Numbered from the stretch's first letter, positions 7,735 to 64,000 are shown. The stretch is DNA of 64,000 nucleotides from Bilabrum cf. latius (GCA_965178125.1 OZ237735.1:1-64000), one strand, 5' to 3'. Made by a program: numbers and translations. The notes: generated from the letters alone by a model not told the origin.

Positions 7735-9461
7735 ATGAGTGTTGCAGCTGGTGGTGATTCAAATACAGTTGTGATAGTTGGAGCCGGGCTTGCAGGGGCG
7801 ATGGCGGCTTTACACTTCGCTAGGCGGCGTGATGGCGGCAAGCAGTACAAAGTCATCCTGGTTGAGAGGCGCCCAGACTTCCGGAAGTAGCGCGTCAGAC
7901 TGGAGCAAACGAAGTAAGTTGGTATCTACACGTGCAATTGGTGCTGAACGCGCTGAGCATAGCTTCTCGATGACCTGCACACCTTCGCTTTCAACGCTGA
8001 CGTTGCCGTTCGAAGTTGCGTTCAGCTCGCAGGGAATATGGCGCTTCAATCGATTCGCTCAAGAGAAGCATCAATCTAGCTCTTTCAGAGCGCGGGCGCT
8101 CTGCTCTGCGTAGCGTAGGCTTAGAAAAGGATGTCTTGCAGTTCTGCATCCCAATGAAGTAGCGAGCCATGCATCCCAAGTCGGCAAAAGGACTAGCAGA
8201 CGGGTTGGTGCTGCAGCCATACGACCAATCATTTGGTCGGTGCATCTATTCTGTGTCTCGGGAAGAGCTCAGTAGGGTCCTTCTTGATCGGCTGGAGTCA
8301 CACCACGCTGACAACGTCGAGCTCATGTTTTGCACCAAGCTGGATAGCATGGCAAAGGATGGAGCTCTTACGTTGATCGAAGTTGACGAGGATGCCAAGG
8401 CTGTCAAGGACGGCAAGACGACGAAGCTGAACCCGCGCTTGACCATCGGAGCAGACGGGGCATACTCTGCAGTGCGCGGGGCGATGCTGCGCCAGAGCAG
8501 GGCCTCCTACAGCCGCATGTTCATCCCGCACTCCTACAAGGAGTTCGATATCCCGCCGCTGGGCCCAGGGGAGAAAGTGGGAGATCCCGTTAAGCTGGAT
8601 TCCGCCGGTGCGAGTGCTGCGTCGGGGGCAGCAACCGGTGGTGCGGGGCTGGAGCCACGCTACAGGCTGCCTGAGCCAAACTCTCTGCACATCTGGCCTA
8701 GGCATGAGTTCATGCTCATCGCTCTTCCCAACCCAACTGGATCATTCACGTGCACGCTGTTCGCCCCGAACTCGACGTTCAAGCAGCTGGACGAGGGCGG
8801 GGACGAGGCGGTCTGCAAGTTCTTCAAGACCAACTTCCCCGATGTGACGCCGGCCATTGGAGACGTGGAGCAGCAGTACAGAGACAACCCAGCTGGATCG
8901 CTGGTCACGGTCCGGGTGAAGCCCTGGAACATCGGCAGCCGCGCCCTGCTGATCGGGGACGCGGCCCACGCAGTCGTGCCCTTCTATGGACAAGGCATGA
9001 ATGCTGCCTTCGAGGACGCGCTGATGCTGGACGAAACTCTGACTGAGTGCGGGGGAGACCTAGACGAGGCGGTCAAGAAGTTCGCGAAGGAGAGGCAGCC
9101 GGCCGCTGACGGGCTTGCCGACCTCTCATTCGGGAACTACGCCGAGATGGCATCGCATACTGCCCACTCGGGGTTTTTGATCCAGAAGAAAGTCGAGGGT
9201 CTGCTTGAGCGGATGGCACCCAAGTGGTGGATCCCACTCTACTCGATGGTGTCCTTCGAGCGAGTGCCCTACCACGAGGCCAAGGCGCGGGGAGAGAGGC
9301 AGGACGCTGCCATGGCCTGGGCCTTCTCGGCCGGCCTGGCTGCAGCGACTGCTGCTGCTGGCATAACGGCGTGGCAACTGGCAGCAAAGCGTGGGGCTGT
9401 CAGCGTCTCGCCGCTCCAGGCGGTGAGGAAAGGGCTCACAGGCTTGGCTAGCTGGCTCTGA
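7735..9461 (+). CDS. KMO: Kynurenine 3-monooxygenase (FAD-dependent), 535 aa
   Basis: Motifs VIVGAGLAG, RSINLALSERG, IGADGAYSAVR, LHIWPR and LIGDAAHAVVPFYGQGMNAAFED. Intron 7914-8032; in-frame TAG at 7888 and 8160; TGA stop. Confidence 0.93.
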
Positions 9462-9581
9462 TCTGGATGCACAGCAGTGTGTGTTTTGCGTGACACTAAG
9501 CTTAAATCTGAAACTTTGTTTTGACTCTGCACGCTCTTTGTTAACTTCTCAAGGACACTACTAGCATACTTGCATTCCTGT

Positions 9582-11888
9582 TCACTGCGCCATCGCTGCC
9601 TTCATGGAGTTGAGGGCAGAGCCGGCCTTAAACCACTCGATCTGCTCTTCGTTGAAGGTCTGGTTCAGCTGCACCTCGAAGGCGGCGGAGCCATCGGCGG
9701 GGTGCACCACCATGGTGACCTGCTTGCCGGGGGCCAGGTCAGCCAGGCCCACGATGTCCACGCGGTCACGGCCGGTGATCCGATCGTAGTCGGCGGGGTC
9801 TGCGAAGGTGAGGGGCAGCATGCCCTGCTTCTTAAGGTTAGTCTCGTGGATGCGGGCGAACGACCGGGTGATCACGGCCTTGCCTCCCAGGAACCGGGGC
9901 TCGAGCGCGGCGTGCTCGCGGGACGAGCCCTCGCCGTAGTTCTCGTCACCGATGACCACCCACCCGATGCCGGCGTCGCGGTAGCGGGCTGCCACTTCCG
10001 GGACCGCGCCGAACTCGCCAGACTCGAGGTGCTCGACCGTGTTGGTCTCCCCGTTCTCGGCGTTGATTGCTCCGATCAGCATGTTGTTGCTGATGTTCTC
10101 GAGGTGACCGCGGTACTTGAGCCATGGCCCGGCCATGGAGATGTGGTCCGTGGTGCACTTGCCCTTGGCCTTGATCAGCACCGGCATGGCCTCGTAGTCC
10201 TTCCCGTCCCAGGCGTGGAAGGGAGTCAGCAGCTGCAGCCTGTCCGACTTGGGGTCCACCTTCACCTCCAGGGAGGCGCCGTCTTCCGGAGGGGCCTGGA
10301 AGGTGTTGCGGCCGGGGTCAAACCCAGAGGGGGGCAGCTCTTTCCCGAAAGGCGCCTCGAACTTGAACTCACCGCCATCAGGGGTGGGGATGGAGTCGGT
10401 CAATGGGTTGAAGCTCAGGCTCGACGCGAAGGACAGCACCGTCACCATTTCGGGGGAGGTCACGAACGAGTGGGTCGCGGGGTTGCCGTCGTTCCTCTTG
10501 GCGAAGTTGCGGTTGTACGACGTCACGATCGAGTTGGCCTCGCCCTCGGGCACGTCACTCCTGTTCCACTGCCCAATGCAGGGGCCGCATGCGTTTGCCA
10601 GCACGGTGCCCCCCGCGCTCTCGAACACCTCAGTGATTCCATCACGGGCGATCGTGGCGCGCACCTGCTCCGAGCCAGGGGTCACGTAGTACTTGTTCTT
10701 GAACTTGAGACCCGCACCCTGGGCCTGCTTGACCAGCTCGGCGCACCGAGTCATGTCCTCGTAGGAAGAGTTGGTGCACGAGCCGATGAGGCCGGCAGAC
10801 ACCGCGTCGGGCCACTCGTTGGCCTTAGCTGCCTCTCCTAGCTTGTCGATGGGATGCGCCAAGTCGGGGGTGAAGGGACCGTTCACGTGGGGCACCAGCT
10901 CGTTGAGGTCGATCTCGATGATCTGGTCATACTCGGCCCCCTCGTCGGCGCGCAGGTTGTGCGCGTTCGCCTCAGCGGCCTTGGCGATGCCGTCACGTCC
11001 AGTGGACCGGAGGTAGTCGGCCATGCGGCTGTTGAACGGGAACGTGGAGCACGTGGCTCCGATCTCTGCTCCCATGTTGCAGATGGTGCCCATGCCCGTG
11101 CACGAGATGGAGTCCACGCCCTCTCCAAAGTACTCCACGATGGCGCCGGTGCCGCCCTTCACGGTCAGGATGTCGGCCACCTTGAGGATGATGTCCTTCG
11201 GGCTGGTCCAGCCACTGAGCTTGCCGCTCAGGTGCACCCCGATCACCTTGGGCGCCTTGAGCTCCCAGGCGAGGCCGGCCATGACGTCCACGGCGTCAGC
11301 GCCGCCCACTCCCACGGCGCACATGCCCAGCCCGCCAGCGTTGGGTGTGTGCGAGTCAGTGCCGATCATGAGGCCACCGGGGAAGGCATAGTTCTCCAGC
11401 ACGATCTGGTGGATGATTCCCGAGCCGGGCTTCCAGAAGCCCATGCCGAACTTGGCCCCGGCCGAGGCGAGGAAGTCGTACACTTCGCGGTTCTGGTCCT
11501 CCGCGCGGGCCAGGTCCTCGTCAGCGCCTGTCTCAGCCGCGATCAAGTGGTCGCAGTGAATGGTGGTAGGAGCCTGTACCTTTGGTAGCCCGGATGAGAT
11601 GAACTGCAGCACGGCCATCTGGGCGGTCGCATCCTGCATCGCGATTCGATCGGGCCTCAGCTTGAGGTACGTCTCGCCACGGACAGGCACCTGCTTTGGG
11701 TCATCTAAATGCCCGTAGATGATCTTCTCTGCAAGGGTGAGGGGCCTGTTTCCAAGAACGCCACGCACGGTCTCGAGCCTGCTCTCCATGCTCGAGTACA
11801 CATCCTCGATCGTGGTGCTGCCCTTCGGGTCCAGCACAGACAGCGGCGTGGTTGACATGGCGCGGCCCAGCCGCGCGCTAGGGGTCAT
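9582..11888 (-). CDS. ACO2: Mitochondrial aconitate hydratase
   Basis: Motifs [43 protein letters not shown] and [13 protein letters not shown] stop; no in-frame TAG. The true start may lie in an upstream exon (candidate ATGs 11971 or 12031, acceptor at 11895). Confidence 0.96.
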
Positions 11889-62843: not shown

Positions 62844-63388
62844 GGTGCCAACGTTGGGGTTTCCTGGTTTGGCTTGTGTCGCCACCGATGGCAGCGCCTT
62901 TCTGCAAGTTCACGGTGGCTCTAGTAAATTCAAAGCGTTCATTCTTTCAAGAAATCGATGGACGCTTTGGCTAGTGATTTATTGCGCGTGCACCTCACCT
63001 GTCCGCTGCTCGCTTCCCTCGTTTTCCGAATCCTACCTATTCAGATACAGATGCAGAGCTGCGTTCCATTTTAGCTGCTTCACTCAGCCGAAGATGGGCC
63101 GCAGAGCTCATATGCAATGTTCTCGCAGCCAGTATTGCAGGCCACACCGTACCTATCATGGCGACAGACTGCAACATGGTTGCTAGCACCATATCCTAGG
63201 ATGAAATAACCCTACCGTTCCGCTCAAACGCGCGTTGTAAATCTTGAAGACTTTTTGACATTGACAATAGGGTCGATTGAATTGGCAGGTAGACGTGCAC
63301 AGCCGAAATATGAAATGCAGCAACGACTCCGAGTTTCTCTAGGATTTTTACCAAACCCTTCCTCACACAGTAAGAATACTGCGAAAGC

Positions 63389-64000
63389 ATGTCGGGCATT
63401 CTATGCAGTCTTCATTGTTTTAGCTCTGACCTGTCTCGCGTGGGTGCTTCAATCGGAATAGACACCCCAGTAGTTGCGGGGCTTGACGAAGAGTAGGTCG
63501 CCGAACGAATCCGGGGCTCAATGGCCAAACTACCATCTCCCATTAGGTGTCCAGAGTGGCTGTGCTGCTTGCTTCCGTGCTTGCGCTGGACGGAAACCGT
63601 CAAACGTTTCGAGAGATCACAACCAGGGGATGCTTCAGTGATGCGAAGGACCACCCTATCAGACGACGCACGCTCTGTCGTGGAGGAGCAGCGGGTCCCT
63701 AGCACTGACGTATTCGTGGGAGATGTTGTTCGTCTCAGAGCAGGAGACGTGTGTCCTGCGGATCTTGTGGTGACGTACACTGTGGCAGAGGCTCAGGCGA
63801 GCAGACGTGCAATCGCTAGTGAGACCTGCATTCTCGGGCTGCAGTGGATACGCGGCAGGACTTTGGACCCGGATCCGGAGTTTGGATCGCAACATCAACA
63901 ACAACAATCGCCCTTTCGGTTTCACCCGATCGCGTGCAGAGCTAGAGGCCCCGGTGGAAGTGGACCTCTGGCAGCGGACGAGACCGGGGGGCTGCTGCCA
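63389..64000 (+). CDS. Protein with P-type ATPase actuator-like domain (runs off the window)
   Basis: GLDEE(TAG)VAERIR, then ASVMRR...RVPSTDVFVGDVVRLRAGDVCPADL; frame stays open to the window end. Confidence 0.62.

Follow-up and report, generated by a model that had tools for sequence, protein, structure and literature searches.

The first 64,000 nucleotides of OZ237735.1 from Bilabrum cf. latius (assembly GCA_965178125.1, positions 1–64000; this whole stretch is referred to as the window) carry genes in which UAG is very probably read as glutamine by the nuclear translation system of a GC-rich stramenopile, with UAA not used as a sense codon and termination almost always at UGA. The matching translation table is NCBI table 15 (named for Blepharisma), in which TAG stands for Gln and all else is standard, in agreement with the initial annotation of this DNA, which was made from the sequence alone. 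Positions 1–472 form a terminal (CCCTAA)n array with a period of 6 and 78.8 copies (TRF), and this telomere repeat, together with the GT..AG introns and poly(A) ends described below, identifies the window as a nuclear chromosome end of a eukaryote. The GC content per 4 kb ranges from 0.51 to 0.68; from about 8 kb on the window is gene-dense, with values of 0.56–0.68.

Reading frames were bounded only by TAA or TGA, and most were identified through Pfam or PDB. At full length, 22 frames hold 93 in-frame TAG codons. With two of the frames trimmed to their RNA-supported exons, the same set comprises 15,012 codons with 84 TAG, 0 TAA and 0 TGA, the two zeros being partly circular because TAA and TGA served as the frame boundaries; the remaining two frames of the same DNA contain 477 TGA, 225 TAG and 102 TAA. 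These totals are close to the roughly 90 TAGs in about 26 gene models that had been estimated initially. Independent support comes from homology, from tblastn and from the spliced open reading frame (ORF) of a TPS gene. Same-frame alignments to a Pfam family, a solved homologue, a near-orthologue or a paralogue enclose 33 TAGs. A tblastn search of the window with 391 homologues gave 593 high-scoring segment pairs (HSPs), in which TAG occurs at 11 sites well within the aligned segments (up to 144 HSPs per site) and TGA occurs at 3 sites only, at HSP edges and with 1–3 HSPs each; no TAA was found inside any of the 593 HSPs. In the standard code the longest ORF of the spliced TPS mRNA has 398 codons, and with TAG as sense a single ORF of 1,723 codons runs from the ATG at 12453 to the TGA at 17786 across 12 TAGs. 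Homology, tblastn, the spliced TPS ORF and the RNA contigs described below thus confirm that genes here are split by UAG with the conserved frame resuming behind it. Two other measures were not informative: ORF lengths under read-through of each stop did not discriminate, TGA read-through lengthening random ORFs most in GC-rich DNA, and GC content at third codon positions (GC3) was too uneven among genes to serve as a coding filter. The TAG-bearing genes on which the argument draws most are the following.

8001..9461, plus strand: exon of the KMO (kynurenine 3-monooxygenase) gene; one TAG (8160–8162), ends at TGA; PDB match with E 1.4e-79.
12453..17788, plus strand: CBM20-TPS-TPP fusion gene; Pfam CBM_20, Glyco_transf_20 and Trehalose_PPase in this order, also matched in PDB; ends at TGA.
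17885..18736, minus strand: second exon of eIF6; TAGs at 18329–18331 and 18278–18280, ends at TGA; PDB match with E 1.5e-108.
27179..29080, plus strand: gene for a MACPF/He_PIG protein (MACPF2), identified through Pfam; eight TAGs including 28688 and 28820, ends at TGA.
29229..32118, minus strand: two paralogous genes with a weak MACPF match; 29232–30704 has nine TAGs and ends at TAA, 30745–32118 has four TAGs.
38107..39293, minus strand: HPRT in two exons; two TAGs in the first exon, ends at TGA; Pfam match and PDB HGPRT match with E 8e-18.
43324..44835, plus strand: gene for an Erlin-like SPFH protein; two TAGs, ends at TGA; PDB Erlin-1 match with E 5.5e-29.
58873..60318, plus strand: RAD51C; TAGs at 58984, 59035, 59221 and 59308 (the last in Walker A), ends at TGA; PDB match with E 1.4e-52.

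The names eIF6, KMO, HPRT and RAD51C given in the initial annotation hold on the PDB matches, as does the CBM20-TPS-TPP fusion on its three Pfam domains. The alignment of KMO to its PDB homologue (query residues 20–187) covers the TAG at 8160–8162, the HPRT alignment (94–223) covers one of the two HPRT TAGs and the Erlin-1 alignment (43–328) covers the TAG at residue 152. According to the RNA contigs, the TPS exons extend to 12502 and span 12591–12849 and 12941–17788, with the 12 in-frame TAGs at 12682, 13436, 13457, 13472, 13766, 14387, 14969, 16106, 17303, 17468, 17636 and 17750. The intron upstream of the second eIF6 exon occupies 18738–18835.

The stretch 8000–27999 was compared with contigs from sequencing runs X1 (DNA-like), X5 and X6 (study P2) and X7 (study P3). 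Runs X5–X7, which contain 77–91% of sampled window words, are taken as RNA from their splicing and poly(A) ends, the run records not naming RNA. X1 yielded one unspliced contig identical to the window over this stretch. The X5, X6 and X7 contigs skip 12503–12590, 12850–12940, 18738–18835 and 24022–24112, all with GT..AG ends on the gene strand, corresponding to RNA-supported introns of 88, 91, 98 and 91 nt; transcript depth varies about 30-fold across genes, and transcript contigs end in A-runs at 9518 and 9524, with the KMO poly(A) site near 9518–9524, behind the frame. All 12 TPS TAGs are unchanged in X5 and X7 and both eIF6 TAGs in X5 and X6, in each case with no other letters and no gaps. 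The KMO TAG is unchanged in X5, X6 and X7, the KMO contigs covering 8033–9518 with no differences and with poly(A) loose ends. Since spliced, poly(A)-ended contigs of two studies keep the TAGs, editing, tiny introns and consensus or assembly errors are excluded as their source for this 20 kb. The persistence of TAG in mature mRNA, for which the initial annotation had looked to RNA, is therefore established for TPS, eIF6 and KMO in three runs from two studies.

The amino acid at TAG was read from the residues that homologues carry in the same column. The closest comparisons are with P0303, a TPS relative of 193 residues that is 92–95% identical and has Gln opposite TAG 14969, and P0391, a MACPF2 relative of 247 residues that is 95% identical and has Gln opposite TAGs 28688 and 28820; at the TAGs spanned by near-orthologues of 92–96% identity, Gln is thus found in three of three. 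In RAD51C the column of the Walker A TAG (59308) is Gln in 118 of 120 homologues and that of TAG 59035 in 77 of 120; another RAD51C TAG column has Glu in 40 and Gln in 34. Both eIF6 TAGs stand opposite Gln in three of three eukaryotic eIF6 alignments among the matches listed. The eIF6 and Walker A TAGs therefore do mark Gln positions, as originally described. The same had been said of the TPS TAG at 14387, which is overstated: this column is variable, with Asn in 30, Gln in 23 and Asp in 18 of 143 sequences. When column log-odds are summed over 11 sites, Gln scores +17.7 bits, followed by His (−0.3), Glu (−1.2), Arg (−2.9), Ser (−8.9) and Leu (−24.3), so that the predicted enrichment of TAG columns for Gln is borne out. 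Judged from these sequence comparisons, UAG is glutamine in these mRNAs.

Codon usage fits into this picture. TAG makes up about 13% of Gln codons in the frames; its share is lower in frames of higher GC3 (Spearman rho −0.65, p 0.001) and higher where CAA has a larger share (rho 0.50, p 0.017), and TAG is rare or absent in the genes of highest GC3. Alongside CAG and CAA, TAG behaves as a third Gln codon that is not preferred. The paralogues 29232–30704 and 30745–32118 (blastp E 5e-53) have TAG opposite TAG at two positions, which is all that was kept from this pair, as its 31% identity is too divergent to name the residue. Among the relatives, P0296 (188 residues) begins six codons past TAG 14387 and stops directly in front of TAG 14969, and P0303 ends where the window has CAG (15251); P0296 and P0391 are encoded on one 29,909-nt contig. 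The ends of P0296 suggest standard-code gene calling on a relative with stops at both places, and we infer a shared code in these relatives, with TAG and CAG exchanged for one another between them.

In public protein collections the TPS and MACPF genes of these relatives are present only as short fragments of 188, 193 and 247 residues. They have evidently been broken up by standard-code gene calling; the ends of the fragments fall at TAGs of the window or at one of its CAGs. A metagenome scan for relatives with flanking genes returned two short contigs of 76–77% identity, followed by bacterial-grade matches of at most 68%.

Several observations weigh against the reading of UAG as Gln with UAA as a stop. 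The KMO TAG stands opposite Ala or Gly, the Erlin TAG opposite Ala and the HPRT TAG opposite Ile; the RAD51C column at 59221 is Ser in 71 of 120; and TPS 13766 and 16106 have no dominant residue, the distant TPS homologues being variable at the TAG columns. All of these columns (KMO, Erlin, HPRT, RAD51C 59221 and TPS 13766 and 16106) are variable and neither support nor contradict Gln. When the eIF6 exon was scored against Pfam eIF-6 with ten meanings of TAG, Gln (262.8 bits) was closely followed by Lys (262.7), Arg (261.9) and Glu (261.1), with Trp at 257.5, a 5-bit spread from a profile that includes archaeal sequences and is a weak judge. Neither a tRNA gene (ARAGORN) nor any other Rfam family was found in the 64-kb window, and eRF1 is not among its genes. 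UAA is seen as a terminator in two frames, the frame definition is partly circular and the identification of X5–X7 as RNA is indirect, as set out above.

Of the terminal codons in 23 frames, 21 are TGA and two are TAA, and UGA closes frames with conserved C-terminal regions. If TAA tracked CAA as TAG tracks CAG (84/453 × 119), the 15,012 codons should contain about 22 in-frame TAA; at the TAA density of the other two frames the figure would be about 51. They contain none. No homology-bearing frame continues across TAA, and reading through TAA adds at most 61 codons upstream and at most 14 downstream, none of them with homology. We therefore favour a reassignment of UAG only, with UGA as the working stop; the role of UAA as a stop is thinly sampled in one 64-kb window. 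The initial description of the change as confined to UAG accordingly stands as far as the lack of in-frame TAA is concerned, its other half, a working UAA stop, being represented by two of 23 frames.

The alternative that fares best is a code of the table 6 type, in which UAA and UAG would both encode Gln and UGA would be the sole stop, in-frame UAA being too rare to appear in 64 kb of GC-rich DNA. The predominance of TGA (21 of 23 frame ends) is what such a code would produce, in the two frames that end at TAA the next TGA follows after only 10 and 14 codons, so that read-through would carry no visible cost, and TAA is the rarest stop triplet off-frame as well (102 of 804). The complete lack of in-frame TAA against the 22 or 51 expected, and of any frame with homology across TAA, nevertheless makes this code unlikely. 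A change of UAG only is also mechanistically simple, as a tRNA with anticodon CUA reads UAG only (PMC5304391).

Less likely still is an ambiguous code in which UAG would be Gln internally and a stop near mRNA 3′ ends, as in Condylostoma and karyorelict ciliates and for UAA in Blastocrithidia. It could draw on the TPS gene, in which one TAG lies 11 codons before the TGA and three more lie in a low-complexity tail without homology, but TAG is not enriched near frame ends: the last TAG is within 35 codons of the end in four of 23 frames, and a uniform distribution predicts 4.08. Two of these four frames (29232–30704 and 30745–32118) have a paralogue alignment that extends beyond the last TAG. In MACPF2 the last TAG is 85 codons from the end, and P0391 continues to the same C-terminus. 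Where the C-terminal regions of conserved genes can be aligned, the genes end at TGA.

That UAG encodes an amino acid other than Gln (Glu, His, Lys or Ser) is very improbable. The Pfam eIF-6 scores for Lys and Arg are within 1 bit of that for Gln, and two RAD51C columns favour Glu (40 versus 34 for Gln) and Ser (71 of 120), but Gln leads by about 18 bits over the 11 sites, at all three TAGs spanned by near-orthologues and in 118 of 120 Walker A sequences. TAG and CAG are moreover one transition apart, which fits the swap at 14969 and the relative's stop at 15251. Finally, the view that there is no code change, and that the TAGs reflect sequencing or assembly errors, editing, tiny introns or decaying subtelomeric pseudogenes, is hardly credible: the window is subtelomeric with a fast-evolving multigene family, a typical setting for pseudogenes, but the frames are interrupted by TAG only and never by TAA or TGA, single-copy housekeeping genes (eIF6, RAD51C, KMO, HPRT and TPS) are affected, X1 DNA and three spliced RNA runs from two studies are letter-identical at the TAGs, and relatives have stops or Gln at the same sites.

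A UAG-only glutamine code could arise by two changes, both proposed here by analogy (PMC5304391). A tRNA-Gln with anticodon CUA would decode UAG and not UAA, and the release factor eRF1 would no longer recognize UAG efficiently, though it would still recognize UGA and probably UAA; such a weakening of UAG recognition has been proposed for the T32G change of Iotanema (PMC5304391). As a single mRNA carries up to 12 TAGs, decoding of UAG must be efficient.

The organism was placed with two single-gene trees. One of the two markers is a gene free of TAG:

9582..11924, minus strand: mitochondrial-type aconitase; 780 codons, no TAG, GC3 0.86, ends at TGA; Pfam Aconitase match with E 2e-143.

The aconitase is 80% identical to that of Cafeteria roenbergensis, the best named match, 81% to other sequences and 74–77% to those of oomycetes and ochrophytes; as no match reaches 100%, the proteins of the organism itself are absent from the collection searched. 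In a FastTree phylogeny of 120 rows the window falls in an 81-row clade (starred) whose 16 named rows are all stramenopile, and it groups with C. roenbergensis with SH-like support of 83. The RAD51C tree, also made with FastTree and used for the enclosing clade only, puts the window, with a long branch, into a starred clade of 29 rows, of which only four, all ochrophytes, are named. That the organism is a stramenopile is well supported by these sequence-based trees and agrees with the stramenopile-like affinity proposed earlier; a position near the bicosoecids is tentative. An aphelid origin was also considered, with Amoeboaphelidium as a candidate UAG=Gln organism, and was rejected: Amoeboaphelidium is cited as UAR=Gln (that is, with both UAA and UAG as Gln) in the papers listed below, and the aconitase and RAD51C trees place the window with stramenopiles and not with opisthokonts. 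Just upstream of the aconitase frame, an X6 contig skips 325 nt (11893–12219, minus strand) with CT..AC ends. This gap is probably a 5′-UTR intron, far longer than the coding introns of 88–98 nt.

The code can be compared with those already described. Nuclear codes that change UAG only include the rhizarian exLh (Leu), Iotanema (Gln), Scotinosphaera (Ser) and, among ciliates, Protocruzia and phyllopharyngeans (Gln, Leu) (PMC5304391, PMC11687900). The initial annotation had named the fornicate, the rhizarian and some ciliates, an incomplete list that omits Scotinosphaera (UAG=Ser), Protocruzia and two phyllopharyngean lineages (UAG=Gln) (PMC11687900). The closest parallel is Iotanema spirale (Fornicata), where, as here, UAG alone has become Gln in a nuclear, non-ciliate code and UAA is not sense; in Iotanema both UAA and UGA are stops (PMC5304391). 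Iotanema, however, belongs to Metamonada and the present organism to the stramenopiles; UAA is its primary terminator (PMC5304391), whereas UGA closes 21 of 23 frames here; its eRF1 has the T32G change in the GTS motif (PMC5304391); and it is known, in the passages cited, from a transcriptome, whereas the present organism also offers genomic DNA that includes introns and a telomere. The codon table found here, with UAG=Gln, is shared by Protocruzia tuzeti and by two lineages of phyllopharyngeans (PMC11687900), but ciliates belong to the alveolates, possess macronuclear genomes and have many code changes on record, in contrast to a stramenopile. The UAR=Gln codes of the table 6 type (many ciliates, Hexamita, Streblomastix, ulvophytes and Amoeboaphelidium protococcarum; PMC5304391, PMC11687900, PMC6299283, PMC6394959) share with the present one the conversion of a stop to glutamine and UGA as the main terminator, but read UAA as Gln, whereas no in-frame UAA is present here in 15,012 codons. 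The rhizarian exLh and some phyllopharyngeans (Leu) and Scotinosphaera (Ser) uncouple UAG from UAA as here, with another amino acid; in our columns Leu scores −24.3 and Ser −8.9 bits against +17.7 for Gln.

Full-text literature searches, which covered main texts and few subscription journals, found no nuclear code change in a stramenopile, and the passages on UAG=Gln ciliates in PMC11687900 contain no stramenopile case. In a 2024 overview of stramenopiles the only mention of genetic codes is in a reference on mitochondria, a preprint on the Cafeteria genome gives only the mitochondrial UGA=Trp code, a paper on Incisomonas is without the genetic-code terms searched and a 2026 guide to protist culturing refers to non-canonical codes for Blastocrithidia only. 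Within the literature searched, the suggestion that this code change is possibly undescribed is thus upheld: the kind of code is known, and the lineage appears to be new.

The remaining frames with in-frame TAG are listed below, together with a gene that runs past the end of the window.

19014–20948, minus strand: membrane protein frame.
20963–24118, minus strand: MACPF frame.
24622–27405, minus strand: frame with no Pfam family; 928 codons, five TAGs, transcribed (X5 contig).
32045–33637, minus strand: MACPF frame.
34617–36674, plus strand: MACPF frame.
36859..37401, plus strand: P-loop (AAA_28-like) exon; three TAGs, two of them within the Pfam AAA_28 match (residues 21–124); no relative found in the PDB search.
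39417–43035, plus strand: kinase frame, ends at TAA.
44907–45863, minus strand: GATase frame.
46183–49527, minus strand: adaptin frame.
49722–52118, plus strand: LRR frame.
52192–54465, minus strand: beta-helix frame.
56974–58080, minus strand: Nop25-like frame, weak Nop25 match.
60368–62143, minus strand: further frame with TAG.
63374–64000, plus strand: start of a P-type (E1-E2) ATPase gene that runs past the window end; one in-frame TAG upstream of the Pfam match.

Two names from the initial annotation are kept with reserve. NOL12 corresponds to the weak Nop25 match, and the NDUFA9-like gene, which has an epimerase fold and no TAG, is identified from generic epimerase and NmrA-type matches only. 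At least six MACPF (perforin-like) genes lie on both strands between 20963 and 36674, one of which carries cysteine-rich repeats and, at the C-terminus, a He_PIG domain. The cluster is a subtelomeric multigene family; a role in prey killing or defence is only a guess. The region 40001–44000 is the GC maximum of the window (0.677, with a GC skew of +0.13) and is where the kinase gene has its long low-complexity tail, a stretch rich in Ala, Gly, Arg and Ser that gives spurious matches to other low-complexity tails.

Behind the terminal telomere array, a layered subtelomere at 796–5199 consists of a 167-bp repeat in 2.7 copies (796–1254), a 155-bp satellite in 10.7 copies (1552–3202), two interstitial telomere arrays (3263–3524 and 4325–4594) and, innermost, a 53/106-bp repeat (4917–5199). 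The interstitial arrays suggest past healing of chromosome ends or exchange between subtelomeres. The TPS-TPP (plus strand) and eIF6 (minus strand) genes are convergent at 17786–17887, with about 100 nt between their TGA stops, and RNA assemblies fuse them into a single contig (X5). Because both genes are joined in one contig, their 3′ UTRs probably overlap. Contigs of two to three runs share identical loose ends of 187–255 nt at 8033, 9137, 15847, 19344 and 19566 that have no match within 8000–27999. The one at 8033 is probably an upstream KMO exon, past an intron extending beyond 8000; the other four may stem from trans-joined contigs, from chimeric ones or from further copies outside this stretch of the genome.

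Few nuclear codes are described, in the passages cited, as uncoupling UAG from UAA (one fornicate, one rhizarian, one green alga and a few ciliates), and such codes bear on why the two codons are nearly always coupled and on how a single eRF1 can cease to recognize one of the stops. With a stramenopile, a further major lineage would join them. Its genome of about 60% GC, which has introns and telomeres and is covered by both DNA and RNA data, is at odds with the AT richness that usually accompanies UAR reassignment, and the GC richness and near-exclusive UGA stop set the code apart from that of Iotanema, described in its source as having UAA as the primary stop. There is a practical consequence as well: standard-code gene callers fragment genes here, as the 188-, 193- and 247-residue pieces of the relatives illustrate against genes of 633 and about 1,700 codons, and annotation, orthology and phylogenomics of this organism and its relatives must therefore use table 15. 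We may be dealing with an independent and so far unreported origin of UAG=Gln in stramenopiles, an interpretation that we find attractive without quite favouring it, in a GC-rich, probably cultivable lineage near the bicosoecids, in which at least one relative at about 5% protein divergence shares the code and UGA is nearly the sole terminator. As UGA has this role and UAA is almost unused, the lineage may be in transition towards a code with a single stop, or towards UAR=Gln. If this is true, the organism would provide a natural system for how eRF1 tells UAG from UAA.

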